Positions 2,619-42,438 of a stretch of 64,000 bases of DNA are shown one piece after another. The position numbers and the translations under genes are program-made. Numbering within the stretch: the stretch's first letter is position 1; every line of letters begins with the position of its first letter. Origin of the DNA: a virus (lineage: Duplodnaviria > Caudoviricetes); the IMG/VR virus record IMGVR_UViG_3300033066_000592, positions 1-64,000 of that record. The stretch is one strand, 5' to 3'. The notes below the pieces were generated by a model. It saw only the letters and a list, made by a program, of their open reading frames with translations, ran no database searches and was not told where the DNA came from.

Positions 2619-2734
2619 TAAGCGGTGCACGACCGGCTGTGCATGCACAGTGCTATACGTGCACCGCTTCTGTATGACATGCAGGTGCGAAAAGGCGCTT
2701 GCACAGTGCACAGGTTCTGCCAACATGGTGCGCT

Positions 2735-17103: not shown

Positions 17104-17183
17104 GTGCTTTCTCCTGTGCTCGTGAATCAGCGCCGTTCGCCACCGTGGCGTCGTGCGCCTATTGCGCCGCACAGGCTAGCACG

Positions 17184-23197: not shown

Positions 23198-23649
23198 TGC
23201 CAGGCATGCGTCTCTATTTCGAGCTGTACACGCGCTGCTCGTCAGATCCAGATCAGCGGCAGTCTGTGCTCGGCCCGCGCCGCGACATCAACGAGGAGTA
23301 CAGACTGACGCCGGCCAGCACAGGGCCTGGCCCTGGCTCGCTGTCGGTACCAGCAGGCGCTACGAACTGGCAGGTGCCCTTCGGCAGCGTCGTCAACGCG
23401 AGCTACTTGCTCATCGTGATGAAGGCGCCCGTCGAGTGTCGGATCGGGCCCAGCGGCCTTTACTTTCCTCTGAACGGGATTCCGGCTGACCTCAATGCAT
23501 ATCCGTACAGCGACGTCGTGAAGACGCCGCAGCCGGGCATCCTGTTTATCAGCACGACGTCGATCCCTGCTGGCGGAATTTACTTCAACAATCTCGATCT
23601 GGTGAACGCAGCCCCTGGCGAAGTTCACTTGTTCGGAGAGGGACCGTAG
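23197..23649 (+). CDS. hypothetical protein, possibly virion-associated
   Basis: GGGAG RBS; beta-rich. Confidence 0.65.
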   Translation: MPGMRLYFELYTRCSSDPDQRQSVLGPRRDINEEYRLTPASTGPGPGSLSVPAGATNWQVPFGSVVNASYLLIVMKAPVECRIGPSGLYFPLNGIPADLNAYPYSDVVKTPQPGILFISTTSIPAGGIYFNNLDLVNAAPGEVHLFGEGP

Positions 23650-23651
23650 CC

Positions 23652-24668: not shown

Positions 24669-24672
24669 TCGC

Positions 24673-26529: not shown

Positions 26530-26540
26530 GAGACACGACG

Positions 26541-29500
26541 ATGGTGATGGTAGCGATTAAGCCACCGAGGCGCGTACGCAGATGGCTAGAGCGACTTGAT
26601 GCGCCTGGCGCAGTGGATGCCGAGAGCTACCACGTCACGTTGTTGCACATCAAAGGCGCTGACCTGTCGAAAGCTGGCTTTGCCGCTCTGTGCGAAGCCG
26701 TCGCCACGACTTGTCGGACGCACAAGCACTTCGCAGCCAAGATCGGCGGCTTCGGTTATTTCCAGAACAGTCAGCCGAAGCCCTGTGTGTGGGCTTCTGT
26801 CGATTCTGTCGCTCTCACAGACGTGCGAAACAGCGTCCTTGCGCATCTCAAGGGCAGCGATGTCAAGGTCTCAGACGAGCACGGATTCACGCCGCACATG
26901 ACGCTCGGTTACACAGAGCATGCGCGCAAGTGGAAGCCTGATCATGTGAAGCGCATGCCCGAGTGGACTGCGAAATCTCTGTACGTCGTGAAAGACGACG
27001 TCTGGACCCGCATGCCTCTGACAGAACCCGTGGACGATCGTATGCGTCTTGTGCCGACGTTTGAGTCAGGCTACCGCGACCTTGAAAAGCTATGGACCTG
27101 GCACAAGTCGCTCGTCGTCGTGAATGAATCCCTAGAGAAAGGCCGCAAGAAGGGCGGACAAAACAAGACGCGCCGATACTTGCTGCGCATCGAGATGCCC
27201 GGTGGTTCACCGGGCAAGCCGAACTACCGCTACGTCTATCCAGATAAAGACGACGTCGTCAGCTTCGATCCAAAGACGGGCTTCAAACTCAAGCCAGGTC
27301 GCAGCATTGCCAAGATCGTCAACGAGAAGCTGTTCGGCGACTACGGCGTAGACTCGCGCACGGGCGATCCCTACGTGAAAGAGGGCCTGTTTTACGCATA
27401 CGAGCCACGTGTCAGCACGTCGTACATGAAGCGCGCGTACGGTGAGCCGATTGCCACGGAGACGCTGAACAAGGTTCGGTTCTTCAAGTACAAGAAGGTT
27501 CACGGCTACACGGACGTCGACCTGGGCCCTGGCGTGGCCGCGTCAGGCTACCGGCTGCCACAGAAGCTGACGCAGCTTCAGATGACCGCTGACGAAGCGG
27601 CGGCGGCTCCGGGAAATCTCGCCGCAGAAGGCGCCGTCATCCTCAAACCAGAGGAGTTTGAAGAGAAGCGACCGTCGCCGTCTCACGACGTGGCACCTGT
27701 CGGCGAGAAGTCGATCGTCGTCGTACCAGAACAGACTCCTCTGTCGAAGTTGAACCTGGCTGAGCCGCTTCCTGACGACGTGGACCCGCTTCAGTACGCG
27801 GTGTCAGCAATCGAAGGCACGCGGCCTGGCCCTGGCAAAGCCGTTGTACGCCCGTTCAAGCAGTGGATGATCGACAAGTTCGGCAGCGAGTCAGGCTTGG
27901 TACAAGAGCTTGGCAATCGGCCGGCTACGACGTTGGTGACGCTCGGGCGTTTCAAGCCGACGCAGAAGAAAGTCCTCGCACGGCTCGAAGAAGAGTGGCG
28001 CGGCGTGATTCGGGGCATCGCCAAGCGTGCTGTGTCGGCGTATCGCGTGAGCAACGCATATCTTGCGGCCAAGGCATCAGATCAGGCCGCTGGCGTGCCG
28101 TACGAGAGTCAGAGTTCAGCAGCGCGCGGCTATATGCGTGAAGTCTTCAAAGAGGCCACGCAGCACGGCAGTGAGCAGCTGCTGCGCCTCGCTCGCCAGT
28201 ATGAGCCCACGGTTCATCACGATGATCGTTTCGACAAGTGGCTGTACGGCGCACTAGAGACGCAGATCGCGCGACACACCAAGCAAGAAGTCGAGCAGAG
28301 CAGCGGTGGCGGTGGAACGATCGAGCCGATCGTCAGCGGCGACATCGAAGAGGCCGCACGACGTACAGCGCAGCAGGTTGACCTGCAGCCTGACGAAGCC
28401 TATGAGCTGAAAGAGGCTGGTCATGACCAGCTGTCAGGCGACGAACTGACGACGTTGTCGACTGTGACAGGCCCTGCGAAAGCGACACTGCTGCGCACGC
28501 TGCACTCGCCTGAGATGCCGCAAGCGTACAGACGAGTGCTGGCTGCGCGCCTGTGGCTCGATTCGCCTGAGTCAAGCGCCGCTGAGGAGCAGGCCATCGC
28601 CAAGCGGTCTGACAAAGGTGTGAAAGGGCCGCAGAGTTTCGAGCGCAACTACACAGGCAAGAACGGTATCGCGTCGCGCTACAAGACGTGGATAGACCCA
28701 AAGACAGGCAAGCTTGTAGACGTGTCGAAGCTGAATCAGAGCCGACAAGCCGCCCTGTTGTCGAGCTGGTACGAAGCGGCTAAAGCGCATGTATTTCGGC
28801 AGCTGAGCGTACCGATGGCCGAGGCTCGCGCCACGATGCCAGACGTGCATCCGAGCGGCCTCTATCAGAATCCGAAGCGTGTGCCGTTCACAGAGCAGCA
28901 GATCGCCGACAAGCTGCATTCAGTCGGCCATGGCACAGCTGAAGATGCCGCAGACTTGCTGGTGGACGCCGCGCTTGGTGGCGGTATGCGCGTGCTGACG
29001 CGCGAAGGCGCGATGGTCAAGCGTTGGCTGGAGCTAGAGACGAAGCTGGCGCGTGGCAATCGTCGACTGTTCTCAGAGCGCACGCAGCATCCGATTGCAC
29101 AGGAGTCGCTGTCTGGGCCCGTGCCCGCACGTCCCGCGAAAATCGTCGTCATGCCTGAGAAGCCTGTGCTGGATAAGCACGGCGAGTGGCAGTCGCTACC
29201 TGTACATCCGACGCAGCGCTCAGCGCATCCGGCGATCGACTTCTTCTCGTCGACACCGAACCAGCAGCTTGCGCAACGGCTGGGCATCAATCTGCGACAC
29301 ATCAGTGGTCCAGAGACGGCCAGTGGTGTCTACGCGCATCAGAACGTCAGCATGGGCACCGCCGCGGAGCACACGCTTGCTGCTGCCAAGCTGGCACACG
29401 CGAAGCTGCTCAAGATGCAAGCACTCAAGCCTGCGCGTCTGCACGAAAAGCTAAAGCGCGCTCAGGCCGACGCAGATGCTCTAGACAAGCTAGGGTTGAG

Positions 29501-30296
29501 CCGCACGTCAGCAGGCATGACGTGGAACGAAGCCGGTCAGATCGGCAAGTTCTACAATGCTGTGCGTGCGCTGCACGCAGCTACGAACACGATCAAGCAA
29601 AAGCAGGCGAAGGTCCGTCTCGCCAAGAAGGCGTATCGCAAAGAGGCTGGCAAGGTCAGCATCGCGGCCAAGAATCCGTTCGACCGAAAGAAGGACAAGC
29701 TCGCGCATTCGGTCATGCGACATATCCTCGCTGTGAAACCGACGAGTACGCAGGAACTTGACCAGGCTGTGATGAACTGGATCGACGAGACGCACGACGT
29801 CGAGAGCAAGTCTGCACGGCGGACGTTTTTCAATGCCGTGAAAGAGCATCTACGCAACGAGAAAGCCGTCAGCAGTGGTGGCGACTTGGCGAAGCATGAA
29901 GCCGAGCTGAAGAGTCACGCGCCGACTGCACAGGAAATAGCAGCGCACAAGGCCGCAGCTGATCACGCAGCGAAAGCTGGAGCTGCTCTTAGCGCCGTGA
30001 AAGTCGCAGGCAAACCGTTCGGTAAGGAAGTCGTGATGCGCTACATCAGCAGCAAGAATCCGGCTGAGGTTCATGACGAGGTGCGTGCTTCGCTTCAGAA
30101 TCTTGCATCAAGCGTACATACCGACAAAGAGCTTGCCGAGTTCGAGCTGAACCGTCGCAAGACGGCCGGCAACACGCTCGTCAAGTCGATGGCTGAGGCT
30201 TCGTTCGAGAGCTTCGGTGCAGCGATCGATGCGTTTGATTTCGCGCTTACGATGACCGATTCTGCACGTATGGCTGCCGAAACGGTCGTGGTGTGA
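26541..30296 (+). CDS. polyvalent protein: N-terminal 2H phosphoesterase, central sigma70-like region, C-terminal shared helical module
   Basis: AGGAG RBS before ATG 26541; YHVTL and PHMTL HxT motifs. Confidence 0.75.
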   Translation: MVMVAIKPPRRVRRWLERLDAPGAVDAESYHVTLLHIKGADLSKAGFAALCEAVATTCRTHKHFAAKIGGFGYFQNSQPKPCVWASVDSVALTDVRNSVLAHLKGSDVKVSDEHGFTPHMTLGYTEHARKWKPDHVKRMPEWTAKSLYVVKDDVWTRMPLTEPVDDRMRLVPTFESGYRDLEKLWTWHKSLVVVNESLEKGRKKGGQNKTRRYLLRIEMPGGSPGKPNYRYVYPDKDDVVSFDPKTGFKLKPGRSIAKIVNEKLFGDYGVDSRTGDPYVKEGLFYAYEPRVSTSYMKRAYGEPIATETLNKVRFFKYKKVHGYTDVDLGPGVAASGYRLPQKLTQLQMTADEAAAAPGNLAAEGAVILKPEEFEEKRPSPSHDVAPVGEKSIVVVPEQTPLSKLNLAEPLPDDVDPLQYAVSAIEGTRPGPGKAVVRPFKQWMIDKFGSESGLVQELGNRPATTLVTLGRFKPTQKKVLARLEEEWRGVIRGIAKRAVSAYRVSNAYLAAKASDQAAGVPYESQSSAARGYMREVFKEATQHGSEQLLRLARQYEPTVHHDDRFDKWLYGALETQIARHTKQEVEQSSGGGGTIEPIVSGDIEEAARRTAQQVDLQPDEAYELKEAGHDQLSGDELTTLSTVTGPAKATLLRTLHSPEMPQAYRRVLAARLWLDSPESSAAEEQAIAKRSDKGVKGPQSFERNYTGKNGIASRYKTWIDPKTGKLVDVSKLNQSRQAALLSSWYEAAKAHVFRQLSVPMAEARATMPDVHPSGLYQNPKRVPFTEQQIADKLHSVGHGTAEDAADLLVDAALGGGMRVLTREGAMVKRWLELETKLARGNRRLFSERTQHPIAQESLSGPVPARPAKIVVMPEKPVLDKHGEWQSLPVHPTQRSAHPAIDFFSSTPNQQLAQRLGINLRHISGPETASGVYAHQNVSMGTAAEHTLAAAKLAHAKLLKMQALKPARLHEKLKRAQADADALDKLGLSRTSAGMTWNEAGQIGKFYNAVRALHAATNTIKQKQAKVRLAKKAYRKEAGKVSIAAKNPFDRKKDKLAHSVMRHILAVKPTSTQELDQAVMNWIDETHDVESKSARRTFFNAVKEHLRNEKAVSSGGDLAKHEAELKSHAPTAQEIAAHKAAADHAAKAGAALSAVKVAGKPFGKEVVMRYISSKNPAEVHDEVRASLQNLASSVHTDKELAEFELNRRKTAGNTLVKSMAEASFESFGAAIDAFDFALTMTDSARMAAETVVV

Positions 30297-30297
30297 C

Positions 30298-32484
30298 GTG
30301 CATCTGCATTACGAGGACATCAGAGCTGACCTTGCGTACCTGAGCCCGTTTCCTGTGGAAGCGGCTAGCGTGCGCAAGGTCGTACAGGGTTATGAAGGCG
30401 TGTTGTACAGCGCCGGCCGTGCCTATATGTACACGCTGAACGGTCGGGGACTTCGCTTCGTAGGCGTGCCTGATGAAGCCGCAGACGACGCTGCGCGAGC
30501 GCACGATCTGTCGATGGACGCAGAGCGCGCGTTGTCGCTGGCCGAGAATCGTCGTGTGTCAGCGGCTGAGGCCAGCGAAGCCGTACAGATGAACGGCGCT
30601 ACTGTCGGCCAGGTGCTGATCGTCAAGGCGAGTCCAGGCGCGCACCACGCAGGTTACATGCGGCGTGATCCACGCACAGGTAAGTTGGAGCAGGTGTCGC
30701 CGCTTGGTTACACGCCAGAGAAGCCACCGCCGCGCGAGACGAAGCATTATGCGGCAGTGAGCGTGAATGCGGATGTCGAGCTGGAGTCTGACGACGAGCT
30801 TGGGCATCAACTGCTCGCGCATCTCATCAAGCGACAGCCCAAGAATGAAAAGCAGCTTGCCGCCGCTGTCGAGAGCTTCGTTGACGACAGTTTCGACATC
30901 GAGAACGCAGCTGCTCGTAAGAAGTGGCTGAAAACGATTCACAGCTATCTGACGGAAAACGGAATCACAGAGACGGCAGACGCCAATGACGAGGAAGCCG
31001 AAGGTGATGCCGAGCAGGATGCGTGGAGCAGTCGCAAGGCACAGGCAAAGCTTCAGATTCCTGTCACGTTCAAACCACGTGGCACCAAGCTGCTTGTGAA
31101 TGGGCAGCCCGTCTCTGTATCGGCCGATGTCGAGCAGGCGTGCTATGCGTACGCCAAGCGCTTCCTCGTCAAGGGCGGTACCGTCAAAGACCAGGCGCGC
31201 TTCGTCAAGAACTTCGAGTCGAGCTTGCGCAAGCTCGGCGTGCCCAAAGGTGACATTGGCTATAAGCACTTCGTTGTTCAAGCGAAGAAAGACCTCGCGG
31301 CGCCTGTCAGCAAGAAGGGTCCGAAGGACGAGAGCCCGCAAGCACGGCCTGACCTGTACGTGAAGCAAGACGGCGTTATGACGCGCGTGATTGCTGCAAC
31401 GCTTCCGACAGGTGGCTTCTACACGGGCAAGAAGGGCTACGGCACGTGGGTTCCTCCTGTACGTGAAGAAGACCTTGTGCTCAACGTGTCGCCAGGCGGA
31501 GCGCCAGCAGGTTGGCGTGGTAAGGTCATCAACGATCCGTCGAAAGATTTCTACCTGACATGGGAACACCCTGTCGCCAAGAAGCGCGGTTACGTCTACA
31601 TGAGCCGCAAGCAGGCGGATCTGGAGAAGTTTTTTGCCTGCACAGTGCTCAGCAAGAAGTTGCAAGACATCTCCGACGATGTGTTCAAGGACATCACGAG
31701 CAAGAGCACACCGTCAGCCACCAAGGCCGCGGCGTTGTGCGTGATGCTCATAGATCAGCATCACTTCCGTGTGGGCAACGAGACGTTCGCCAAGCAAGGC
31801 ACGTACGGTGTTGCGTCGTTTCGTGCCAAGCACGTGAAGATCGACGGCACGAAGGTTACGTTTGAGTTCGTTGCCAAGAAGCAAGAGCCGTGGAAGCGCG
31901 AAGTCGACTTCGCTGGTATGCCGTCAGCTCTCGCATTCCTGAAGACGTGCATGAAGGGCAAGAAGCCTGACGATCGGCTCTGGTCTGGCACTGACTGGTC
32001 TGCATCGTCGAAAGACGTGAACGAATATCTGGCGCCGTACTCAGCTGATGGCGTCAAGATCACGGCGAAGTCATTGCGCACGTACCATGCGAATCGGCAC
32101 ATGACGGGCTACCTGCGCAAGCTGGAAGAGGCGCAGACGGCCTACAAGCTCACCGATGTCGAGGTGCGCAAGCTGTACAAGGGCGTCAAGCTCAAAGGCA
32201 AAGACGCCGCGCTGCTCACGCGCAAAGCCAAGAAAGACGGACCGAAGCTGTCGGACTTCTTGGGCTTCGTGCCGTATGTCGGCGCCAAGGGCAAGGGCAG
32301 CGCCATGACGGGCGTGCTGCCGTCTGTGGCAGCAAAGATGGGCCACACGACGGGTGCCTGCCGGAATAACTATATCGATCCTGTCGTGGTGACACGGTTC
32401 GCTGTACTGCACGGCTGGGACGATCGAACACCAAAAGAGCGCAAGTCTCGTGAAGACCTGCCAGGGTATGAGCCCGATGCGTGA
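30298..32484 (+). CDS. DNA topoisomerase IB with long N-terminal extension
   Basis: FRVGNE..TYG, FEFVAKK, KSLRTY, KMGHT..ACRNNYIDP: the R-K-R-H-Y catalytic set. Confidence 0.88.
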   Translation: MHLHYEDIRADLAYLSPFPVEAASVRKVVQGYEGVLYSAGRAYMYTLNGRGLRFVGVPDEAADDAARAHDLSMDAERALSLAENRRVSAAEASEAVQMNGATVGQVLIVKASPGAHHAGYMRRDPRTGKLEQVSPLGYTPEKPPPRETKHYAAVSVNADVELESDDELGHQLLAHLIKRQPKNEKQLAAAVESFVDDSFDIENAAARKKWLKTIHSYLTENGITETADANDEEAEGDAEQDAWSSRKAQAKLQIPVTFKPRGTKLLVNGQPVSVSADVEQACYAYAKRFLVKGGTVKDQARFVKNFESSLRKLGVPKGDIGYKHFVVQAKKDLAAPVSKKGPKDESPQARPDLYVKQDGVMTRVIAATLPTGGFYTGKKGYGTWVPPVREEDLVLNVSPGGAPAGWRGKVINDPSKDFYLTWEHPVAKKRGYVYMSRKQADLEKFFACTVLSKKLQDISDDVFKDITSKSTPSATKAAALCVMLIDQHHFRVGNETFAKQGTYGVASFRAKHVKIDGTKVTFEFVAKKQEPWKREVDFAGMPSALAFLKTCMKGKKPDDRLWSGTDWSASSKDVNEYLAPYSADGVKITAKSLRTYHANRHMTGYLRKLEEAQTAYKLTDVEVRKLYKGVKLKGKDAALLTRKAKKDGPKLSDFLGFVPYVGAKGKGSAMTGVLPSVAAKMGHTTGACRNNYIDPVVVTRFAVLHGWDDRTPKERKSREDLPGYEPDA

Positions 32485-33811
32485 CGACTACACGAAATAT
32501 TTTCTGAGCCGCGTAGACGGCAGTGAAGACGCCTACAACGGCTACCTACAAGCGCCTGGTGACGACTTGGTGTTTGTGGCCGAGCGGCACGGCCGAGAAG
32601 ACGTCGTGACGAAATCGACGGTGCTGATGAAGGCCGAGAAGTATAAGGTGTTGGGAGTAGCATTTGGCTATGCGAAGCACATTTCCTATCAGCGTCTAGA
32701 TCCCCGCACTGGAAAGATGGTGCAGGTGAAAGGCGGTCGTGATACGCCGATAGGAAAGACGTCGCTGACACCGCACCACTTCGACATTACGGTGCAGAAG
32801 AAGCATGGTCTCAGTGACGATGAGACGGCGATGGCCGTACTTCGCTACGTCGCGCAGAAGAAAGTCCGCACAGAAGGCGAGCTGCACGAGGCTGTGCAGG
32901 AGTTCGTGGAGAAAAATTACGACTCCGAAAGCTCAGAAGCTCGGGGCAAATGGGTGAGCACGATTCTGAAAGCCCTGTTTCACCACAAGGCTGTACAGGT
33001 CACGCATCCAGGTGACGACATTGCGTACGGCAATATGCGCGTGCGTGATATGGCCATGGTGAGCCAGTGGGTACAGGGCTCCAACAACACCGTCGGTTCT
33101 GTCAGGCTCCGTGTCGGTGTTGCGAAACTGTTTAAGCAGGATATCGAGCGCGTCACGGAACGCGCTCGAAAGAATTCATCTGACAAGAAACGTTTTGAGC
33201 GCATGTTGGCTGACGCCAAGGCCGACAAAGACCTCGTCGCTTCTGTGGAGCGCGTAGCGGCGCTGTCACAGTCTGCTTACAAGGGTCAAAAGACGGTCGT
33301 GCTGCATCGCGCTATCAGCAAGGAACAAACAGCTGAGATTCGGAAACAGCTAAAGCTGAAGCCCGGTGTGACTGCACGTGGGAAGGTCATTACGATACCC
33401 GTCGATAACGTGACGTCGTTGTCAGAGAATGCTGCTGCGGCACATTCGGCGTTCGCCGGTTTTGACGGCATGACTGTACGGGTCGAGGTACCCGTGTCTG
33501 CCATCGTGATGTCGTATCGGGCAATGCCGTCCACGATGTCGCTAAGCGGCGACACTGAGTGGGAGGTAGTTGTCGCTACGCCAGGTAAGCTTCATGCTAC
33601 GATCGTAGCCGACAGATATCTTGGTGAGAATTCGTTACCGGAAGCTCCTATTAAATACCAAAAATCTTCTTTACGGGCTTTGGCTGAAAAAGAACGTGCA
33701 CGTTTTGAATCTAGGTACACAAAATTAAATCCCAAGCAGCACAGTATCTACAGCACCTATTGGAAAAAAACGCCTGCGGAATTCCTGCTCGAAGAAGATG
33801 TGTTTTCATGA
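32477..33811 (+). CDS. putative ADP-ribosyltransferase (R-S-E class) with shared N-terminal module
   Basis: VLHRA...VTSLSEN...VEVPVSAIV...EWEVVV. Confidence 0.6.
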   Translation: MRDDYTKYFLSRVDGSEDAYNGYLQAPGDDLVFVAERHGREDVVTKSTVLMKAEKYKVLGVAFGYAKHISYQRLDPRTGKMVQVKGGRDTPIGKTSLTPHHFDITVQKKHGLSDDETAMAVLRYVAQKKVRTEGELHEAVQEFVEKNYDSESSEARGKWVSTILKALFHHKAVQVTHPGDDIAYGNMRVRDMAMVSQWVQGSNNTVGSVRLRVGVAKLFKQDIERVTERARKNSSDKKRFERMLADAKADKDLVASVERVAALSQSAYKGQKTVVLHRAISKEQTAEIRKQLKLKPGVTARGKVITIPVDNVTSLSENAAAAHSAFAGFDGMTVRVEVPVSAIVMSYRAMPSTMSLSGDTEWEVVVATPGKLHATIVADRYLGENSLPEAPIKYQKSSLRALAEKERARFESRYTKLNPKQHSIYSTYWKKTPAEFLLEEDVFS

Positions 33812-34329
33812 AAACAAAGCCCATAGCGCTCACAGTAGACATCGACGCAAACGGTGGTAACGAATGGCTGCACGAGATTCGTCGCAGGCGCGCGGCGCAA
33901 CAGCGCATGCAGAAGGCGCTACCCCAACCGCAAGCCGAGAAGCCGGCCAAGCAGCTTGAGCCTGCGAACAAGCACCAGGGCACCAAGGCTGCGAAAGTCG
34001 CGGCCAAAGGCAGCGGTCGGCCTCGCTACACCTACCCGACCGAGAAGAAGTCGGCACAGGCTGTGGCAGCCAAGCAGGAAGCTGTGATGGTCGCACCTGA
34101 TGGCGTCGATCCACAAGCATTTGCCACCAAGCTGGGCCTGTCCCTGTCGACGCTCAAAGGCACCGTACAGGAGTTTGTGAGCGAGCCGAAGATGGGTGGC
34201 CGTGAGGGCTTCGCCAAGTTCATGCGCAGCACCGTAGGTAAAGCGTTCATGACGCGCAACGGCGTGGGTGACGACTACTTCGGCAAGCTGTACGATGTGT
34301 TCACGAAACCCCCACAGCAGGAGAACTGA
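33808..34329 (+). CDS. basic head-region hypothetical protein
   Basis: ATGA coupling; MQKA site followed by GRPRYTYP. Confidence 0.65.
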   Translation: MKTKPIALTVDIDANGGNEWLHEIRRRRAAQQRMQKALPQPQAEKPAKQLEPANKHQGTKAAKVAAKGSGRPRYTYPTEKKSAQAVAAKQEAVMVAPDGVDPQAFATKLGLSLSTLKGTVQEFVSEPKMGGREGFAKFMRSTVGKAFMTRNGVGDDYFGKLYDVFTKPPQQEN

Positions 34330-34330
34330 G

Positions 34331-34843
34331 ATGCCGATGCAGACACCGACCATTGCAGAACGCATGAGTGCCGCCCTTCACGACGATGACGATGCCATCG
34401 AAAAGGGCGGCGCCGACAAGCTGAAGGTGAACAAGGTGCCGTTTCCGCACAAGAAGCGCACGGGCCCCACAACGGTGCGGCCTGGCGGCAATGTGCCGAA
34501 GCACGGCAACACGCCGGCCCAGCTTAAGGGTAAGATCAAGAAAGGCGACGAGGCCGAAGGCGTCGATGAGACCGACGGCAGCGTGCTGACGCCGCCCGAA
34601 GGCGTTGTCGAGAAGGGCAAGGGCGCGTCCTGCAAGAGCTGCGGCAAGTATGGCGCGCTGTGCAAGTGTGAGGGCAGCATGCAAAAAGGCGAGGACACCG
34701 AAGACAAGCCGGCGCGTGTCGGAGCTTCGGATTTCGTCAAGAGCATGCACGGCATGACCGACGATGACATCGCCCGCGCCGCGCAGTCCGGTATCCTCGG
34801 TCTTGGCGGCACGCCGGCCTCGCTGGGCTTCCCCTCCGCGTAG
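34331..34843 (+). CDS. head-region protein with multiple hydrophobic-x-K-G/S sites
   Basis: IEKG, IKKG, VEKG, MQKG, FVKS; CKSC..CKC. Confidence 0.65.
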   Translation: MPMQTPTIAERMSAALHDDDDAIEKGGADKLKVNKVPFPHKKRTGPTTVRPGGNVPKHGNTPAQLKGKIKKGDEAEGVDETDGSVLTPPEGVVEKGKGASCKSCGKYGALCKCEGSMQKGEDTEDKPARVGASDFVKSMHGMTDDDIARAAQSGILGLGGTPASLGFPSA

Positions 34844-34899
34844 TACCCCTCGCTTCTGTTGCCTAGAGCCGTTCTGGCTCGACTATACTGCCCCACATA

Positions 34900-37800
34900 A
34901 TGCTGACAGGCAAAACGGTGTCAGGCGGCAAGCTGCGCGTGCGCGTGCAGCCGCTGCCCTACGCGCATCTCCAGCAAGTGGCTGACGGTTTGACGCACGT
35001 GTTTACGACACGTATGCGAGAGCTGGAAGCCAAACTGAACGCGCGTCTCGCTCACACGGTAGAGCGTCTACAGCCAGCCGTGCTCATCGTGTCTGACGAA
35101 CATCTGAGCAAAGCGGCTTCACCTAAGCAGAATGCATCTGGTCAAGCACGCGCGAAAGCCGGCGAGGGTCAGACGCGCACGTATCAGCGACCGCCAGGCG
35201 GTGTGAAGACGCCAGGCCAGCGCGGCGGCAAGTTCTACTACACGGCGACAGGCAAGCTTCGTTACGGCGAGAAGCCGCAGCCGCAAGAACGTGAAGCCAC
35301 GCACGAAGAGGTGCGCCAGCATTTTCAACACTTCCGGCCAACGCCATTCATGTCGAATTCTCGGGAGCACAAAGACCTGCTCCAGGCGATTCGTGATCTG
35401 AAGACCGGTGGCTTCGATGAGACAGATGACACGCTGCTCGGCTGGTGGGAGAAACACCAGAAGCAGTTCAACAAGCTATGGGGCCTGTCTGACGAGGATG
35501 TGGCCGGCGATCTGTCTGCGATCCAGCTACAAGACAACGACGGTCGAGAGCTGTCATATGAGCAGGCGGTTCATGAATTCCTGATGGATCAAGACTGGGG
35601 TGACGCCTCTGAAGCTGACGTAGAAGAGGCGCTGCGCGATGTCATGACGCGCTATCAGAATGCGCTACGTGACCCGGCCGTCATGAAGAAGGCCGAAGCC
35701 ATCGCAGCGCAAGTGGACCAGCAGGTGTATGGCTGGTTCACGAACATGGAAGCGACAGCCGATCACTATGACGGCCTGGCTGCGTCGCTGTCCGGTGATC
35801 CTGACGTCGCTGTTGCGAACATGACAGCGGCGCTTGGCGCTATGGAGCTGGTTTTCAAACCAGGCAAAGGCCAGAAAGCTGGCGATCTGACTGGTGCGAT
35901 TGCGCCGAACAGCGGCTGGCTCGACGAAGGCGGATACCTATCGACGACAGGCGCCGATCGCGTAGCGAGTCTCAACGTCGGACAGCTTCTCGCTATCTAC
36001 GCTGGCGCCAGGCTCAACGAGGCTTTCGATCCAGACACAGCGACCTACGACACGCTTCACGGTGGCAAAGGCCCGCAGTCAAAGCTGGCCGAAACTGTGC
36101 GCAAGCTCATCGCGCAGAAGCTGAAGCTGGACCCTGCGGGCGCGGTCATGACGACGGTGCTAGATGGCGTTCACGCAACCATCGAGCGTCTGGCTACGAC
36201 GTTCTCGAATGCCAACACAGGCCGTGACACGTCAGGTCTCGCCCGCAAGTTGCTCGACATGCCGAGCGACAAGCTCACCAAAGGTGGCGAGGGCGTTCAG
36301 AAGCTGATCGAGAAGGCGCAGAACTTCGAGCAGCTGAAGGCCGACGCGCTCAAGGCCCGTGAGGACGAATCCTGGTCTGTGCCCGACACGATGCTCGAAG
36401 GCAACGTCGGCGGGAAGAAGATCAATCCGATCACAGGCAAACCGTTCGACCTGTTCAAGCACCAAAAACAAGCCATCAACTGGGCCAAGACTGTCAAGCG
36501 TGGGCTTCTTGCAGACGATGCCGGTATGGGCAAAACGGCCGAAGTGATTGGCATTTGCGAGTCGCTGAAGCAAGACGGCAAGATCAAGCGCGGCATCTTG
36601 TTCCTACCACCGTCGCTTCTTGCACAGTGGCCAAAAGAGATCATGAGCTTCGCGCCAGAGATGGCAAAAGGCGGGCGCATCCTGAACCTGTCTGGCCTGT
36701 CCCTGGAAGCTCGCAAGGCCGCGCTTCAGAGCGACATGGCCAAGAACGCCGAGTACATCCTCATGAGCACGGGCTCACTTGCCTATGGCAAGTCCGAAGA
36801 CGGCGAGGAGGATGGCGGTATGGATGAGGGCTTGGTGCAAGCTCTCGCGGATCTCGACGGCGCTGTGTTCATCGACGAAGTACATCAGGGCGGCTTCAAG
36901 ACAGGTAGTCAGGGCGTCGCTGGTACGAAGGATTACAGACCGGGTAGTGTTAAGCATGAGATCACGAAACGCATCATCGGTGAGCGTGATTACGCGTTTG
37001 GCATGACAGCTACACCATGTCCAAACAACCCGATGGACCTGTATCACTTGATAAACCTCTTTCACCCAGGGTGTGTTGGGGATCAGGCTGAGTGGGAAGA
37101 GAAGTTGTCGGGCGTGAAGTGGGACGGCCATTCGTGGCGCATACCGCATCCTGAGAATGTGCAAGAGATTAACCGTCGTATTAAGCCGTTCGCGCTACAC
37201 CGTTTGATCACGGACAAAGTTGTTGAAGAAGACATGGGCAAGCAACTCCCGCAGCTCACGTCTAACGCGATAGACTTAGAGCCAGCGACGGCAAAGTGTC
37301 CCGTAACAGGTTGGAGTCAGCTTGATTACCTGCGACCTGGCGGTGTTTGCGATGCTTTGGCGCAGAAACGCTTAGAGATCATCAACGCGAAGCGTGAAAA
37401 AGCCGGAAAGCCTGTGTTGGAGGGTGTAGACGCAGAGACTACCGTGCGCATGATCCACATGGGCCTAGAGCGCCAGGCCGCTATCAGTCCAGAGCTGATA
37501 GATCCGCGCTACCGCGGTCCTGCCGCCAAGCTCGATCGCGTTGTTGCCGATGTCATCGCCCACTTCTCAGGCGGCGCTGGTCAGGAAGGCAAGCCGATCG
37601 TTCTGTTCGACAGCTTCCCTCGCAAGTCTTTTCCCGTCGTCAAGCGCAAGCTTGCGGAAGCCGGCATCGACGTGAGCGGCATCGGCGAGATCATGGGTGG
37701 CAAGTCAGCGCAAGAACGCGCTTTCATGCAGGATATGCTCAACGGTTATGAGCGTGTGAATCCTGCGACGAAAGAGAAGGAGTTCGTACCAGGTAAGCTC

Positions 37801-39282
37801 AAGGTGCTGCTCGTAGGTACGAAGGCTGGCGGCGCTGGTCTGAACCTACAAAAAGCGGCGAATCGCTCGATGTTTTTGAGCGAGCCGTGGGACCCCGCGA
37901 GCAAGCGCCAAGCACTTGGCCGCGTGTGGCGCACAGGGCAGAAGTCGCACTGTACCGCTGACAACTACCGCATGATCGGTACCTACGATATGCGTGTGGA
38001 AAATAAGCTCGGCACCAAGCAGCTCATGACGACTGCTTTGCTGGGCGACGCTGACGTGGACTTCAATCAGAGTGCTGACGAGCACATCCAGCGTCTGACG
38101 GGCCGCGAACTTGGCGGCGAGAACATGAGCACCGAGCAGATGGCGGCTCTGTTGGCAAACGCTGGTAACTTCAGTATCGACGCCGATTCGCTGGGCGATG
38201 ACTTCGATGACGTGAGCGAAGACTCGTTTGACGATTCTGAGTTCATGGACAAGAAGCTCAAGCGGTCAGAAGAAAAGAAGCTGGAGGCTGACCCAGCAAA
38301 GCGCGCCGCGCTTCAAAAGAAGGCGCCACAACTGGCCGAAGTCGTCGACATGAGTGCCGAGTCTGACAAGTGGCACGCAGAGGCGATGCGTCAGACGGCC
38401 AAACAGCGCTATGACATCGCGATGATGCAAGCGAAGGTCGCCGAGACGGCCGGTGACAAGCAGATGGCCGACAAGGCACAGAAAGCAGCGGAGCGCGTTA
38501 AGGCAGCCTTTCCAGAAGCTTTCGGCGCTGTCGAGCGTAAAAAGCAGGAAGTCGACACGGACGACCTGTTCGCCAAAAAGCAGCAAGCGAAAACCGAGTC
38601 GGTACAGCGTCAAGCGCAGACGGTAAACGAAGGCAAAGAGCCCACGCGCGGGGACATGAGCCTTGCTGCGGCCAACTATGTTGCGCGCAACAAAGATCAC
38701 TTCAGTACCAAGCAGCGCAAGGCCGCGCAAGAAGTGATCACACAGGCAGAGCGCCTGGGCATCGACAGTGATACGTGGCGACCTAACGAGGAGCGGCTTG
38801 ACCGGCTCGCCAAGCACAAGGGCCAGATGCCCAAGATGGGCGACGTGCTCAAAGACCTCAAGCAGCGGTGGGCGGAACACAACTGGCTTGAAGCAAACGG
38901 TCACACGAAAGAAGCAAAGGCCGCACGCAAAGAGATCGATCAGCAGCATGGCTGGCTGCCTGAAGAGTTCGATGACGTGGCGTCTCAGCAGCAGCAAGAG
39001 ATGGCGCACAAAGGCATTGGCGTGAAGCCGAAGAAGCCGGAAGGCTTTGTGGCACCTACGGCGTTTCCGGCCAAAAACCCCTTCAAGAAAAAAGAAGACC
39101 CTCTCGCTTACGACGCGATGGAACACCTGCTTGCGAAGCAGCCCAAGACGTATGACGATACGCAGGCAGCGCTACTCCAGCACGTCAAGAAGACGATGAA
39201 GGGCACACCCGAAGCGCTTAACAAGTTCGCCACGCAGGTGCACAAGTACCTGATCAAGAACAAGGGTTTGACCTATGGATGA
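34900..39282 (+). CDS. SNF2-family (SF2) helicase/translocase, 1460 aa
   Basis: GLLADDAGMGKT, FIDEVH, MTATP.PNNPMDLY, AGGAGLNLQKA, PWDP...QALGRVWRTGQ. Confidence 0.92.
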   Translation: MLTGKTVSGGKLRVRVQPLPYAHLQQVADGLTHVFTTRMRELEAKLNARLAHTVERLQPAVLIVSDEHLSKAASPKQNASGQARAKAGEGQTRTYQRPPGGVKTPGQRGGKFYYTATGKLRYGEKPQPQEREATHEEVRQHFQHFRPTPFMSNSREHKDLLQAIRDLKTGGFDETDDTLLGWWEKHQKQFNKLWGLSDEDVAGDLSAIQLQDNDGRELSYEQAVHEFLMDQDWGDASEADVEEALRDVMTRYQNALRDPAVMKKAEAIAAQVDQQVYGWFTNMEATADHYDGLAASLSGDPDVAVANMTAALGAMELVFKPGKGQKAGDLTGAIAPNSGWLDEGGYLSTTGADRVASLNVGQLLAIYAGARLNEAFDPDTATYDTLHGGKGPQSKLAETVRKLIAQKLKLDPAGAVMTTVLDGVHATIERLATTFSNANTGRDTSGLARKLLDMPSDKLTKGGEGVQKLIEKAQNFEQLKADALKAREDESWSVPDTMLEGNVGGKKINPITGKPFDLFKHQKQAINWAKTVKRGLLADDAGMGKTAEVIGICESLKQDGKIKRGILFLPPSLLAQWPKEIMSFAPEMAKGGRILNLSGLSLEARKAALQSDMAKNAEYILMSTGSLAYGKSEDGEEDGGMDEGLVQALADLDGAVFIDEVHQGGFKTGSQGVAGTKDYRPGSVKHEITKRIIGERDYAFGMTATPCPNNPMDLYHLINLFHPGCVGDQAEWEEKLSGVKWDGHSWRIPHPENVQEINRRIKPFALHRLITDKVVEEDMGKQLPQLTSNAIDLEPATAKCPVTGWSQLDYLRPGGVCDALAQKRLEIINAKREKAGKPVLEGVDAETTVRMIHMGLERQAAISPELIDPRYRGPAAKLDRVVADVIAHFSGGAGQEGKPIVLFDSFPRKSFPVVKRKLAEAGIDVSGIGEIMGGKSAQERAFMQDMLNGYERVNPATKEKEFVPGKLKVLLVGTKAGGAGLNLQKAANRSMFLSEPWDPASKRQALGRVWRTGQKSHCTADNYRMIGTYDMRVENKLGTKQLMTTALLGDADVDFNQSADEHIQRLTGRELGGENMSTEQMAALLANAGNFSIDADSLGDDFDDVSEDSFDDSEFMDKKLKRSEEKKLEADPAKRAALQKKAPQLAEVVDMSAESDKWHAEAMRQTAKQRYDIAMMQAKVAETAGDKQMADKAQKAAERVKAAFPEAFGAVERKKQEVDTDDLFAKKQQAKTESVQRQAQTVNEGKEPTRGDMSLAAANYVARNKDHFSTKQRKAAQEVITQAERLGIDSDTWRPNEERLDRLAKHKGQMPKMGDVLKDLKQRWAEHNWLEANGHTKEAKAARKEIDQQHGWLPEEFDDVASQQQQEMAHKGIGVKPKKPEGFVAPTAFPAKNPFKKKEDPLAYDAMEHLLAKQPKTYDDTQAALLQHVKKTMKGTPEALNKFATQVHKYLIKNKGLTYG

Positions 39283-39673
39283 TCACGCGATTTTCGAACT
39301 CGTGCGCGCTGACGGTAAGAAGCGCGCACGAGTGACGACACCGAAAGACACGCTGCGCGTGCACGACGCCGACGAGCTTCGTGCACAGCTTGATCACTAC
39401 AGCAAGGCCAATGGTGTGACGTTCCTACGTCACGTGGTCGTTGACTCGCAGCAGGCACGTCTTCAGTACGTCAAGTACCTGCGACCGGCTTTGCGCTACT
39501 ACTGCAAAAAGTTTGGCGTACAAGTGCCCGACTGGCTCAAGGCCGATACAGCTTTCTCAACGCTGTCCGCACACGAGCAGCACACGCTGTTCGGTGAAAC
39601 GGTCAAGTTTCCTGTGCGTGAATTCGCAGAGGTGAACACGTCTGGTTCGAAGCAAGGAAAGATCGCGTCATGA
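39275..39673 (+). CDS. hypothetical protein
   Basis: Overlapping start and stop with both neighbours. Confidence 0.65.
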   Translation: MDDHAIFELVRADGKKRARVTTPKDTLRVHDADELRAQLDHYSKANGVTFLRHVVVDSQQARLQYVKYLRPALRYYCKKFGVQVPDWLKADTAFSTLSAHEQHTLFGETVKFPVREFAEVNTSGSKQGKIAS

Positions 39674-40374
39674 GCGCCGGCCTTTTGGACCTGACAGTGC
39701 TGACGCGCGAGGTCGACGTAGAGTTCACGGCGTTCCTCTACGAACTTTTTGGGTCGGCCGTTGTCGACGCGGAAAGCGCCATGATCGCTCGGACTACCTT
39801 GCACAAGAAGTCCGAGCGCGTCGGTATGCAGCTGTTGGCTGAGGCGAATAGCAGTCGACCTACGCAGCGGTTAGCTCGTGAGCGGCTGGTTCTGCGGGCG
39901 CAGGCACTTCGTGACGACGTGCAGCGTGGCTTGACGCAGGCGTGGCTGTCTGCCGATGGCCAGCCGGTCGAGGCTCGCGTGGAATTTATGCGTCGCGAAA
40001 TCGTGCCTCGTCTTGTGATGGACGCTGTGCGTGCATGGGTTCGCGTCGGCACGGCAGAGGTCTGGACGCTCTACCAGGAAGCGCGAGCACAGGAAATCGT
40101 CGATAGTACGGGCTTGCCTGATCCGTATGTGCACAAGATAGGTGCCGAAGACTGCTGTGAGTTCTGCGTGCATCTGTACGGCTCCGAGGGCAAATACAAG
40201 ACGTACCGGCTGAGCGAACTGCGTGGGAACGGCACGAATGCGGGCCGCGAGCCTCGGCAGGAGGTTCTAGAGGGCAAGGTTGTGCCTGAACAGCATCGTG
40301 ACTGGTTGCCTGTGCTGGGCTCTACGCACGGCTGGTGCAACTGTGCGTTGCAGGCGGCGGGAGCACCTACGTGA
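39670..40374 (+). CDS. MuF-like head morphogenesis protein
   Basis: CCEFC...THGWCNC C-terminal motif; position in the head module. Confidence 0.65.
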   Translation: MSAGLLDLTVLTREVDVEFTAFLYELFGSAVVDAESAMIARTTLHKKSERVGMQLLAEANSSRPTQRLARERLVLRAQALRDDVQRGLTQAWLSADGQPVEARVEFMRREIVPRLVMDAVRAWVRVGTAEVWTLYQEARAQEIVDSTGLPDPYVHKIGAEDCCEFCVHLYGSEGKYKTYRLSELRGNGTNAGREPRQEVLEGKVVPEQHRDWLPVLGSTHGWCNCALQAAGAPT

Positions 40375-41225
40375 GCGAGTCACCGTTTGCACGTGTGGTT
40401 CTGCACCAGAAACCTACAAAGCTGGAAACGCCAGATTCTGGCCGCACAGGCTTGGTGCGCATTGCGACGTACGAGGGCGGCACCAAAGCTGTGGTCCGTG
40501 TGCAGAGTCACGAGCTTGAAGGTAAGCGCACCAAGGGCTTCACCAAGCAAGACGGGCTGCCTGTGAAATCACAGCCCGTCAAAGACGCGGCCTACTACGC
40601 ACTGGCGAAGCTGTTGCGTTGCGACGACATCGTGCCCGAAACGTTGCTGAAGATTACGCGACGCGGCAACGACGTTTCATACCAACGATTCGAGCGAGCA
40701 CTGACACTGCGTGACCTAGAGCCGGCTTTACACAAGCTGGAAAAGGGCAGCGACGAGTGGCGTGCTGCGGCGGCACAAGCCATGAAAGTCGTCTCTGACG
40801 AAGACTGGCTCAAGGCAGCGCTGCTCGGCCTTGTTGCGGCTGACCGAGACAGGCATCTCAAGAACTTTGGCGTGCGTGTCTTGGTTGAAGGAAACCGCAT
40901 CGTCTATAGGCTCGTGCTGTGGGACAACGGCGTTTGTCTCGGACAAGCATTCAAGAAGTATCGCAGCGTCGTGCATGAGATCCTGCATGCTCGCAAACTG
41001 GTGTTCGGTGACGTCTTGGCGCGCGTAGACGACATACGTGCTGACGACGTGACAGACTTACTGGTTACGAACCGCATCCACCCGACGGAAGCACAGCAAG
41101 CCGGCAAGCGGCTTGACTTCGTGCGCCGATACCCCCACCGGATGCCTTGGAACATACTCACAGGCATGCCCGGCTATCCTGCCTATCGAAATTTCTTCAG
41201 AGGCGGGGTAGATTGGCGGGGATGA
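40371..41225 (+). CDS. PI3K/PI4K- or HipA-like kinase
   Basis: AAYYALAKLL..DIVPET; DRDRHLKN catalytic loop; LWDNG. Confidence 0.72.
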   Translation: MSESPFARVVLHQKPTKLETPDSGRTGLVRIATYEGGTKAVVRVQSHELEGKRTKGFTKQDGLPVKSQPVKDAAYYALAKLLRCDDIVPETLLKITRRGNDVSYQRFERALTLRDLEPALHKLEKGSDEWRAAAAQAMKVVSDEDWLKAALLGLVAADRDRHLKNFGVRVLVEGNRIVYRLVLWDNGVCLGQAFKKYRSVVHEILHARKLVFGDVLARVDDIRADDVTDLLVTNRIHPTEAQQAGKRLDFVRRYPHRMPWNILTGMPGYPAYRNFFRGGVDWRG

Positions 41226-42010
41226 GTACAGCACACGAGGTACAGCGTCTTCTTGAGGAGGACGAATTTTCGCTGTGGGTTCCGCCTACCGCGACGTCAG
41301 GCTTTACGCTCCTGTCGAAAGCTGGCGAAGTTCCTGCTGACGATGCCCCGCGCATCATTCACGGCTTCTGCACGACAGAGCACGAAGACCGGCAACAGGA
41401 AATCGTGATCGCCAAGGGCCTGGACTTCGCACCGTTCATCAAGCATGGCTGGTTCAACGACAATCACTCGCCACGAACGGCCGACGTGTTGGGCTGGCCT
41501 ATCGAAGCTCGTCTCTACGAAGACAAAGGCTGGTACACGAAAGGCCAGCTTCTGAAGGGCAAAAAAGCCGCTGACGACGTATGGGAACTGGCTGTCGCCC
41601 TTTTCAAGAGTGGTAGCCCTCGACGCCTGGGCTTTTCGATCGAAGGCAAAGCGACGTTGCGCAATGCAGCAAATCGCATTGTCAAAGGCGTTGTGCGTCA
41701 TGTCGCCATCACGCGCGATCCTGTGAACCCGAACTGTCAGCTCGACGTGCTGTGCAAGGCTTTCGCGCCGTCGGAAGAAATCGAGCGCGCCTACACGATC
41801 AGCAAGGCCGCGATGATCGGCCATCAACATCCCGTTATGCACGGTCACGCAGCTCTTGTGCCTGCAAACTTGGAAGCTGCACGTATCATCCGACGAAAAC
41901 AAAAACGTTTGTCGAAGGCAGACGTAGAACATCTCGTACGTCAAGAGATGCAAATGTCCGACGCCTCCGTGATGCGCGTCGTGGACTGGATCATGTCGCA
42001 ACAACAGTGA
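41222..42010 (+). CDS. prohead maturation protease
   Basis: IHGFCTTEHEDRQQEIV, FNDNH, GFSIEG, HVAIT.DPVNP. Confidence 0.85.
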   Translation: MSTAHEVQRLLEEDEFSLWVPPTATSGFTLLSKAGEVPADDAPRIIHGFCTTEHEDRQQEIVIAKGLDFAPFIKHGWFNDNHSPRTADVLGWPIEARLYEDKGWYTKGQLLKGKKAADDVWELAVALFKSGSPRRLGFSIEGKATLRNAANRIVKGVVRHVAITRDPVNPNCQLDVLCKAFAPSEEIERAYTISKAAMIGHQHPVMHGHAALVPANLEAARIIRRKQKRLSKADVEHLVRQEMQMSDASVMRVVDWIMSQQQ

Positions 42011-42017
42011 GGACCAG

Positions 42018-42389
42018 ATGAACAAGGCACCGACGCAGACCACTCGCCGTATCAACCTGACCGATCCCCAGATCAAGCTGTTTCAGCTGGCGAGCGGTCA
42101 GAGTTTTACGATCCCGGAATCGATCGACATCCCTCCGATGCCGAACAACCTGATGGCTGCGGCCACCAGTCGGCGCGCCACTGGCGGTGAGATTTTTGGC
42201 TTCACCGATGACCAGGGCGTCATCGAGCCGCATCGGGATTTCGGCCTCGTGCTGAAGCCTGGCGATCGGCTGGTGCACGGTGCCATCGGCGCGGTGGCCG
42301 CGAACACTTCGATCCTGTACGTCAACGACGTCGAAGTGCTGCGAATCACGTGCAGCGACATCAGCGTGGTGCTCGGCTTCTACAGCTAG
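42018..42389 (+). CDS. hypothetical protein
   Basis: GAGGA RBS; lies between protease and scaffold. Confidence 0.65.
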   Translation: MNKAPTQTTRRINLTDPQIKLFQLASGQSFTIPESIDIPPMPNNLMAAATSRRATGGEIFGFTDDQGVIEPHRDFGLVLKPGDRLVHGAIGAVAANTSILYVNDVEVLRITCSDISVVLGFYS

Positions 42390-42438
42390 GCGCTGTCGTT
42401 TCACATCACCGAACGCTGAAAAGCACTGGAGCTTCAAG

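Follow-up and report, generated by a model that had tools for sequence, protein, structure and literature searches.

A class of polyvalent, or head-cargo, proteins has already been described (Iyer, Burroughs, Anand, de Souza and Aravind, 2017; PMC5512222), in which a repertoire of SWI2/SNF2, ADP-ribosyltransferase (ART), 2H, kinase and MuF domains, encoded beside portal and terminase head genes, is predicted to be packaged and injected. N-terminal cargo-targeting propeptides cut at the capsid motif are known from T4 IPI-III and Alt, a cargo which includes an ART and combines a common leader with diverse mature parts that are ejected with the DNA (PMC9026906), and from the ejection proteins of the phiKZ-like phage SPN3US, where the prohead protease gp245 removes propeptides of 20-254 amino acids and the transcription apparatus is delivered (PMC10052503). 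The Dar system of P1 (DarA, DarB, Ulx, Hdf, DdrA and DdrB) is a further multi-protein head cargo with a large SNF2-type member, DarB, processed before or during encapsidation, which protects or prepares the incoming DNA. The subject of this work is a 14.7-kb block of genes (26541-41225) located between the portal and prohead protease genes of an uncultured, SPO1-related phage, recorded as IMGVR_UViG_3300033066_000592. The window, that is, the whole stretch of DNA analysed, comprises the first 64 kb of this 74,264-bp linear virus record (CheckV completeness ~63%), and nearly all of its genes are on the plus strand. To judge from its genes alone, the block probably encodes head cargo that would be processed by the protease, packaged in the capsid and co-ejected with the genome.

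A preliminary description of this DNA had delimited the block and its content correctly, but had counted six head-module genes where nine plus-strand open reading frames (ORFs) occupy the interval. The flanking portal, protease, scaffold and major capsid genes were confirmed by Pfam and PHROG. These features, together with a recurrent module of about 75 amino acids (aa) termed the tag, are the following (in the motifs, a bar marks the candidate cleavage position):

24673-26529, plus strand: portal, 618 aa (Pfam Phage_portal 1.4e-19; phrog_12 2.9e-48)
26479-26484: candidate C-terminal junction of the portal, DLVK|S
26541-30296, plus strand: gpB, 1251 aa, with homologues P0007, P0010, P0035, P0036 and P0037
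26541-27140, plus strand: predicted 2H (LigT-like) phosphoesterase domain, gpB residues 1-200, ending at junction LEK|G (27138-27143)
27948-28820, plus strand: sigma70-like module, gpB residues 470-760
29649-29879, plus strand: tag copy 1, gpB residues 1037-1113
30298-32484, plus strand: gpC, 728 aa, predicted topoisomerase IB
30748-30978, plus strand: tag, gpC residues 151-227
32477-33811, plus strand: gpD, 444 aa from a conserved Met
32777-33004, plus strand: tag, gpD residues 110-185
~33272-33649: putative DraT-like R-S-E ART core of gpD
33808-34329, plus strand: gpE1, 173 aa, with junction MQK|ALP (33913-33918), header GRPRYTYPTEK (34015-34047) and a C-terminal part resembling a helix-turn-helix (HTH)
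34331-34843, plus strand: gpE2, 170 aa, Cys-rich, with candidate C-terminal junction DFVK|S (34739-34744)
34900-39282, plus strand: gpF, 1460 aa, predicted SNF2 ATPase
39046-39279, plus strand: tag, gpF residues 1383-1460
39275-39673, plus strand: gpG, 132 aa, no family match
39670-40374, plus strand: gpH, 234 aa, putative divergent MuF-like minor head protein
40371-41225, plus strand: gpI, 284 aa, putative PI3K/PI4K/HipA-type protein-kinase-like protein
41222-42010, plus strand: prohead protease (phrog_1028 8e-45)
42439-43404, plus strand: scaffolding protein with acidic Ser/Asp/Glu runs (phrog_15087 2.2e-4)
43469-44944, plus strand: major capsid protein (phrog_752 2e-84)

The predicted repertoire, like its setting among head genes, matches that of the polyvalent proteins, and one relative (L002) has textbook members of that class, namely a 1760-aa ddrB-ParB protein and a MuF-like protein with an InPase domain, both of them classical polyvalent-protein domains. 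The organisation, however, differs. Polyvalent proteins are single giant polypeptides, each by definition uniting between two and fifteen enzymatic or binding domains that are unrelated (PMC5512222), whereas nine coupled genes are found here; their domains are joined with MPTase autoprotease domains, in place of the prohead-protease-type junctions of this block, and their kinase is a truncated Ser/Thr/Tyr kinase, not a PI3K/PI4K/HipA-like one. Multi-domain polypeptides do occur, since gpB combines 2H and sigma-like parts and its homologue P0035 combines 2H, ART and sigma-like parts; gpC, gpD, gpF, gpH and gpI each have one enzymatic or family domain, so that the set may be regarded as a split form of polyvalent proteins. 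The description of that class does not mention a sigma-like module and uses the word topoisomerase once (PMC5512222), and a comparative paper on jumbo phages does not mention topoisomerase IB. The statement that the combination is unlike that of any described phage holds for this enzyme kit, but not for the class. What sets the block apart is the split, junction-delimited architecture, the lineage-specific tag, the Lys-type motif and a payload that includes a sigma70-like module and topoisomerase IB.

The block also differs from the other systems. T4 cargo is cut by gp21 at L/I-x-E behind leaders of 7-19 aa, is encoded by scattered genes and includes no sigma factor, topoisomerase or SNF2 protein, whereas the candidate motif here is hydrophobic-x-K, the putative propeptides range from 13 to ~200 aa (one of them being a whole 2H enzyme) and the genes form a block between portal and protease. 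With respect to P1, neither a methyltransferase nor detectable homologues of DarA, Hdf or DdrA are present, the enzymes are others and the genes lie inside the head operon. The phiKZ-like phages package a whole multisubunit RNA polymerase, use the motif A/S/G-x-E and belong to an unrelated capsid lineage, while the contribution of this block would be limited to a sigma-like factor that confers specificity on the host polymerase.

Candidate junctions in a coupled head operon

The portal of this phage is 36-39% identical to Herelleviridae portals, and portal and capsid protein together are 32-39% identical to their SPO1-like Herelleviridae counterparts. In the Herelleviridae records listed, only ~2 to 3 kb separate the portal gene from the capsid gene, and the 14.7-kb block is accordingly interpreted as an insertion into a conserved head module. 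All gene borders from portal to protease are overlaps (ATGA, GTGA or 8 nucleotides) or gaps of at most 56 nucleotides, an arrangement indicating that the block genes are translationally coupled within a portal-to-capsid operon. No promoter-like site was found on the plus strand in 23000-42999, no convincing intergenic terminator in the block and, in a crude 9-mer search, no repeated promoter motif in intergenic DNA. The DNA of the block gave no megablast match in 50,697 phage records, and a search for related loci with the portal alone as query returned nothing.

This arrangement bears on the proposal, which we judge unlikely, that the enzymes are unpackaged cytoplasmic proteins whose genes entered the head operon as a moron-like insertion, their K|A/S/G motifs being linkers or chance occurrences. 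Sigma factors, SNF2 ATPases and topoisomerases are usually cytoplasmic, in SP-10 and Nachito the SNF2 helicase gene is found ~10 kb from the head genes, and the timing of expression cannot be read from the map because the record is incomplete. However, the tight coupling with portal and protease, the presence of a MuF-like protein within the block and the little use that a late-only sigma factor would have unless carried to the next cell speak for head cargo. Both the MuF-like proteins and the polyvalent-type SNF2 proteins (phrog_62, phrog_1685, phrog_11801) belong to classes known or predicted to be encapsidated (PMC5512222).

The junctions constitute the second line of evidence. In the scaffold, the motif [ILVMF]xK[AGS] occurs 14 times where 2.0 would be expected, and in the protease 8 times where 1.0 would be, a 7-8 fold excess that fits a core which clears itself. 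In the capsid protein, the junction EIRK|A (43586-43591) precedes the region common to SPO1-like capsid proteins, tblastn alignments begin at residues 13-38, and IRK|A is kept in all three diverged homologues. In silico, the predicted cargo propeptides end in the same type of motif as this capsid maturation site. Thus, LEK|G, at the border between the 2H domain and the body of gpB, is kept in three of three diverged homologues, LSK|A after 71 residues of gpF in four of five, and IVK|A after 110 residues of gpC in two of two, while the K|ALP junction of gpE1 is invariant in all four. By contrast, the internal occurrences in the SNF2 and capsid bodies are mostly kept in no homologue or in one, which argues against linkers or chance; some internal sites are also conserved, such as LYKG inside the topoisomerase domain (2/2). 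Since each cargo protein starts behind a candidate cutting motif of the capsid type, the most likely reading is that the capsid takes up these proteins and that they pass into the host together with the DNA.

The stretches that follow the junctions are strongly basic, with isoelectric points (pI) of 9.8-11.5, and each contains a short hairpin-like header, as exemplified by GYMRRDPRTGK, ISYQRLDPRTGK, GKPNYRYVYP..DPKTGF, GGKFYYTATGKLRYG and GRPRYTYPTEK. A common grammar of the cargo unit can be read from these sequences, consisting of a predicted propeptide, a junction, a basic linker with a Tyr/Arg-rich 'DPxTGK' hairpin header, an optional tag and the enzyme.

Basic segments of this kind would fit contact with DNA, and it could be argued that the proteins are indeed packaged and processed but serve inside the particle, in packaging, genome organisation, an inner-body-like core or the mechanics of ejection, with the enzymes acting on phage DNA. 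Topoisomerase IB and SNF2 are DNA-acting enzymes, and the MuF homologue SPP1 gp7 binds both portal and DNA. A processed internal body is also present in phiKZ-like phages (PMC10052503). Nevertheless, the ART, the kinase, the 2H domain and the sigma-like module would have no obvious substrate in a capsid devoid of NAD, ATP and RNA polymerase, and the accessory units are dispensable in relatives, so that functions in conflict with, or take-over of, the host fit them better than structural ones. We therefore consider a role confined to the particle rather improbable.

Predicted enzymes of the block

In a profile check of each domain assigned in the preliminary description, the 2H, topoisomerase IB and SNF2 calls pass their Pfam cut-offs. 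The ART, MuF-like and kinase calls are backed by homologues, motifs or protein features, with no direct Pfam match above cut-off, and the sigma-like call by profile-profile and fold evidence, the Pfam cut-off not being reached.

The first protein of the block, gpB, is organised as a 2H domain, a junction, a header, the sigma-like module, a second header, the tag, another junction and a 36-aa C-terminal peptide. Its N-terminal domain matches Pfam 2_5_RNA_ligase2 (PF13563; 1.8e-14, 54.5 bits, cut-off 27) and LigT_PEase (PF02834; 1.3e-10, 41.7 bits, cut-off 23.3), while TIGR02258 (6e-12) remains below its cut-off, and both HxT motifs are present (YHVTL and PHMTL). By profile and motifs it is thus a predicted member of the 2H phosphoesterase superfamily. 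In the PDB profile search of gpB, the 2H matches correspond to LigT-type 2H proteins, and no Acb1 structure appeared among the matches.

The sigma-like module consists of a domain-2-like part of four helices, a ~60-aa disordered linker and a region-4-like part. When gpB residues 470-760 were aligned by hhalign with six E. coli sigma factors, a colinear match over regions 2 and 4 was obtained (Prob 80.4%, P 1.3e-5), against at most 3% for three other gpB segments, at most 1.5% for 25 column shuffles and 0.1% for a reversed alignment. In the PDB profile search, the sole matches of gpB outside the 2H domain were to SigA region 2 (E 0.14-0.3). The AlphaFold2 (AF2) model of the module has a predicted local distance difference test (pLDDT) value of 67, and in a fold search against 48,161 chains, carried out without Foldseek, sigma domain 2 or region 4 accounted for most of the 50 matches listed, including the top nine. 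For domain 2, VIA-align gave sigB at Z 9.1 (root-mean-square deviation 1.9 Å over 81 residues), SigE N-terminal domain at Z 8.3 and sigma28 at Z 8.1, with ShbA, sigma70, RpoS and others among the further matches; for region 4, the matches were SigR (Z 6.6), SigD, sigmaE with -35 DNA and sigmaF. Foldseek of the same model against PDB gave no row below E 0.9, though sigma factors head the list. No sigma family matches gpB in Pfam at E ≤ 0.1; Sigma70_r2 reaches only the homologue P0010 (E 0.025, short of the Pfam cut-off), and a search of the phage's own genome with this family gave no match even at E ≤ 10. The assignment therefore rests on profile-profile and fold evidence, which supports a predicted sigma70 fold and domain order.

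The type IB topoisomerase domain of gpC (~31054-32142) is preceded by an N-terminal module of ~110 aa, the junction LIVK|A (30625-30630), the header GYMRRDPRTGK (30643-30696) and the tag. It matches Pfam Topoisom_I (PF01028; 1.4e-27, 97 bits, cut-off 23.7), and residues 253-611 align with PDB 6z01 (1.2e-24) over the catalytic core and into the N-terminal DNA-binding fragment, of which a part is covered. The closest solved enzymes after 6z01 are those of Leishmania (2b9s) and Deinococcus (2f4q). The catalytic core and the TAK..RTY.AN and NYIDP motifs, read here as TAKSLRTYHAN and NNYIDP, are shared with the known type IB topoisomerases, from which gpC differs in the propeptide, junction, header and tag placed in front and in being encoded in a phage head operon. 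Taken together, profile and motifs identify gpC as a predicted type IB topoisomerase. Homologues of this topoisomerase were found in one of 50,697 phage records.

In gpD, a short propeptide, the junction VLMK|A (32630-32635), a header (32672-32728) and the tag precede the ART core. Among 5.8 billion proteins, no more than two are close homologues of gpD, which has no Pfam match of its own. Residues 71-416 are homologous to an insert in the relative P0035 (E 3e-32), which does pass Pfam DRAT (28.9 bits, cut-off 25), and three homologues retain the R, SxS/T and ExE motifs; through this DraT-positive insert and these motifs, gpD is supported as a putative ADP-ribosyltransferase. The AF2 model of the whole protein is poor (pLDDT 45), its best fold matches being ART catalytic domains at Z 5.2-6.8 (diphtheria toxin at Z 6.8 and 6.2). 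Foldseek against BFVD gave low template-modelling scores and just a few rows named ART or MuF, and a search of language-model features (atlas) with the C-terminal part was uninformative.

With regard to gpF, a 71-aa propeptide, the junction HLSK|A (35110-35115) and the header GGKFYYTATGKLRYG (35221-35268), which is invariant across the family of gpF, are followed by the SNF2 core and a C-terminal tag. The ATPase core (~36430-38049) matches Pfam SNF2-rel_dom (1.2e-14) and phrog_62 (2.4e-49); SNF2-rel_dom (PF00176, 54.6 bits), ResIII (PF04851, 39.3 bits) and Helicase_C (PF00271, 28.7 bits) each exceed their own cut-off, and Walker A GMGKT and DEVH are present. On these profiles and motifs, gpF is a predicted SNF2/SWI2 ATPase.

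No Pfam match at E ≤ 0.1 and no PHROG match was obtained for gpH itself, nothing significant was found in its PDB profile search, and in 18 homologues no precomputed Pfam domain is recorded. Nine of 16 homologues match phrog_115 ('minor head protein') and seven match phrog_4728, and a CxxC...HxxCxC zinc motif is invariant. These PHROG matches support gpH as a putative MuF-like protein, comparable to SPP1 gp7 and Mu gpF in the PHROGs of its homologues, its C-terminal zinc motif and its location in the head module. Unlike those proteins, it is encoded 13 kb past the portal gene, not adjacent to it, and in this phage it has no effector fusion.

For gpI, the match to Pfam HipA_C (E 0.01, 16 bits) is below the cut-off of 30.5, tblastn gave no match, and the PDB profile search found nothing significant, with just E 1.2 to the HCK glycine loop. 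In language-model features (atlas), gpI agrees at 0.96 with PI3_PI4_kinase clusters, having 191-199 features in common with them, and the DRHxxN and DNG motifs (catalytic loop and metal-binding DxG) are invariant in four homologues. Features and motifs together support a putative kinase-like protein.

The remaining members are small. Residues 94-121 of gpE1 are HTH-like, with a weak match to SigZ region 4 (E 0.011). A homologue of gpE2 is present in the relative locus L001 (E 1e-16), and the family search of gpE2 gave no match. The best-conserved protein of the block is gpG, with 63% identity to L001 and 40% to L010; the idea that it is the detached N-terminus of MuF homologues was rejected.

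The shared tag and the exchange of cassettes

The sharing of a tag among block proteins, already noted in the preliminary description, was confirmed by BLASTP (1.5e-14 to 4e-3) and by hidden Markov model search. It is a three-helix module of ~75 aa common to gpB, gpC, gpD and gpF. A profile search of 1.84 billion representative proteins returned only 14 matches; two of them, internally repetitive, look spurious, and the others comprise two small proteins and relatives of the four tagged ones. The small proteins, P0013 (289 aa) and P0015 (117 aa), contain little beyond header and tag, and an SNF2 homologue, P0009, ends in two tandem tags (residues 1264-1338 and 1380-1456). The matches of the tag to winged-helix-like folds are weak (Z 5-5.8, on a low-confidence stretch), its charge (pI 4.8-9.7) gives no support to a DNA-binding domain, and by hhalign it has no relation to sigma factors or to other parts of gpB.

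Both the tag and the motifs might be attributed to mere recent internal duplication, with the domain calls over-interpreted, given that some calls are weak or transitive and that gpD, gpH and gpI have no direct Pfam match above cut-off. This interpretation is largely refuted and retains very little credence: independent lines agree for each domain call, and the tag stays with the same partners in lineages just 35-40% identical, for instance in the topoisomerase of L006. The occurrence of the tag coincides with the presence of gpB, and its most likely role is in contacts between proteins, specific to the lineage that has gpB, rather than that of the packaging signal.

Comparison with relatives shows a core set common to all of them, formed by E1, the SNF2 ATPase, gpG, the MuF-like gpH and the kinase-like gpI, and an accessory set gained or lost at junctions, formed by gpB (2H plus sigma70-like), topoisomerase IB and the DraT-like ART. 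The clearest case is P0035, 91% identical to gpB, in which a unit of header, tag-like segment and ART continues the reading frame between the 2H domain and the body of gpB, with the VVVNxxLxK junction duplicated on either side of it; a unit of this kind is the free gene gpD in the present phage. Likewise, the N-terminal module of gpC (~110 residues) has its homologue at the start of the E1-family proteins of L001, L009 and L010 (E 2.6e-5 for L009/L010), from which it follows that the topoisomerase and ART units were inserted at the E1 junction, and a partial duplicate of the E1 N-terminus remains at the start of gpE1. Insertion exactly at junctions, with duplication of the junction sequence, is a further point against unpackaged enzymes whose motifs arose by chance.

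Other relatives lack units, retain them or have different ones in their place. G001 is devoid of 2H, topoisomerase and ART, and its gpB body begins 13 residues before the junction, like a short leader of the T4 type; a separate Cys-rich protein of 212 aa with a lipoprotein-like signal peptide (L003 830-1468, minus strand) replaces the 2H domain there, directly after the portal. L006 retains gpB and the tagged topoisomerase, and L002 has the two polyvalent-type proteins mentioned above instead. The earlier expectation that payload domains are swapped while tags persist is thus borne out as far as cassettes come, go and shift position, but the tag is absent in L009 and L010.

Several other features of the window surround the block:

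2464-5435: small and large terminase genes
16150-17172, minus strand: free paralogue of the sheath insertion domain, as recorded in the preliminary description
18953-19633: thymidylate kinase, amid mostly uncharacterised genes between terminase and portal
21500-22606: ParB-like protein (phrog_2159 1.5e-12), a few genes upstream of the portal
23652-24668: 338-aa protein with a Cys-rich N-terminus, directly before the portal, no family match
42018-42389: 123-aa ORF between protease and scaffold, no family match
51915-54632: tail sheath, 905 aa, with a large insertion domain (phrog_15814)

Between the terminase genes and the portal (24673) lie ~19 kb, and such a separation within the packaging and head module is unusual. 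Head cargo of the P1 DdrB kind typically has ParB-type domains, and for this reason the ParB-like protein may be part of the same cargo system; the order from ParB-like gene to portal is also kept in the distant relative L006. The 338-aa protein contains four junction-type motifs against 1.3 expected and has a homologue of 634 aa in L010, while the 123-aa ORF has the same position and size in L001 (10718-11089). Downstream of the capsid gene, an adaptor, the 905-aa sheath, tail lysins and the baseplate are encoded.

Proposed delivery with the genome and its possible meaning

Some observations weigh against the proposal that the block is packaged cargo. The phage is uncultured and its record ~63% complete, and the specificity of the prohead protease for hydrophobic-x-K|[A/S/G] is one that we infer from sequence. 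The motif [ILVMF]xK[AGS] is not enriched in the cargo overall (3 occurrences against 6.0 expected in gpB, and 6 against 7.2 in gpF), as the cytoplasmic alternative would have it, and because of this the case for the junctions rests on their position and conservation; moreover, P0002, a close homologue of gpD, is without the junction. The tag is not a general loading signal, since L009 and L010 lack it although the core of E1, SNF2, gpG, MuF-like and kinase genes sits between portal and protease in both, and the spread in pI of its copies, from 4.8 to 9.7, suggests no single simple binding mode. Finally, SNF2, topoisomerase and sigma proteins perform ordinary functions in replication and transcription and could act unpackaged in the cytoplasm.

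In spite of these points, the interpretation put forward in the preliminary description is partly supported: the coupling, the capsid-type junctions and the mobile cassettes give strong circumstantial support in silico to a modular payload that would travel in the capsid and enter with the DNA. According to this reading, the cargo proteins would be synthesised late from the portal-to-capsid operon and built into the prohead, where the protease would trim them at hydrophobic-x-Lys|Ala/Ser/Gly, the type of site that matures the capsid protein. The trimmed proteins would stay in the DNA-filled capsid and enter the host with the genome. On arrival, the sigma-like module could turn the host RNA polymerase to phage promoters, topoisomerase IB and SNF2 could work on the DNA that enters, host proteins could be modified by the ART and the kinase, and the 2H enzyme could destroy 2',3'-cyclic or 2'-5' nucleotide or RNA signals. 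It can be proposed only tentatively, as a possibility that we hold somewhat short of even, that a capsid-delivered sigma factor, together with topoisomerase IB, SNF2, ART and kinase, reprograms the host RNA polymerase and prepares the DNA before phage expression, and that exchangeable cassettes recombine at junctions, existing either as free genes or as in-frame segments of a polyprotein.

To our knowledge, no phage with a packaged sigma factor has been described. Phages that carry their transcription with them do so with a packaged single-subunit polymerase (N4) or a packaged multisubunit polymerase (phiKZ-like phages). If the delivery model is true, this block would represent a third way for a phage to carry its own transcription start, by means of no more than a sigma-type factor lending specificity to the host polymerase, and type IB topoisomerase, very rarely encoded by phages, would become a virion component. 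Furthermore, the grammar of junction, header and tag would be a testable rule for capsid loading and for the acquisition of new cargo, which would help to annotate large unexplained genes of head modules and to engineer phages that deliver chosen proteins into laboratory bacteria. In the same way, a single system would exist either as polyvalent proteins or as a set of individual cargo genes, with protease sites as the points at which one form is turned into the other.

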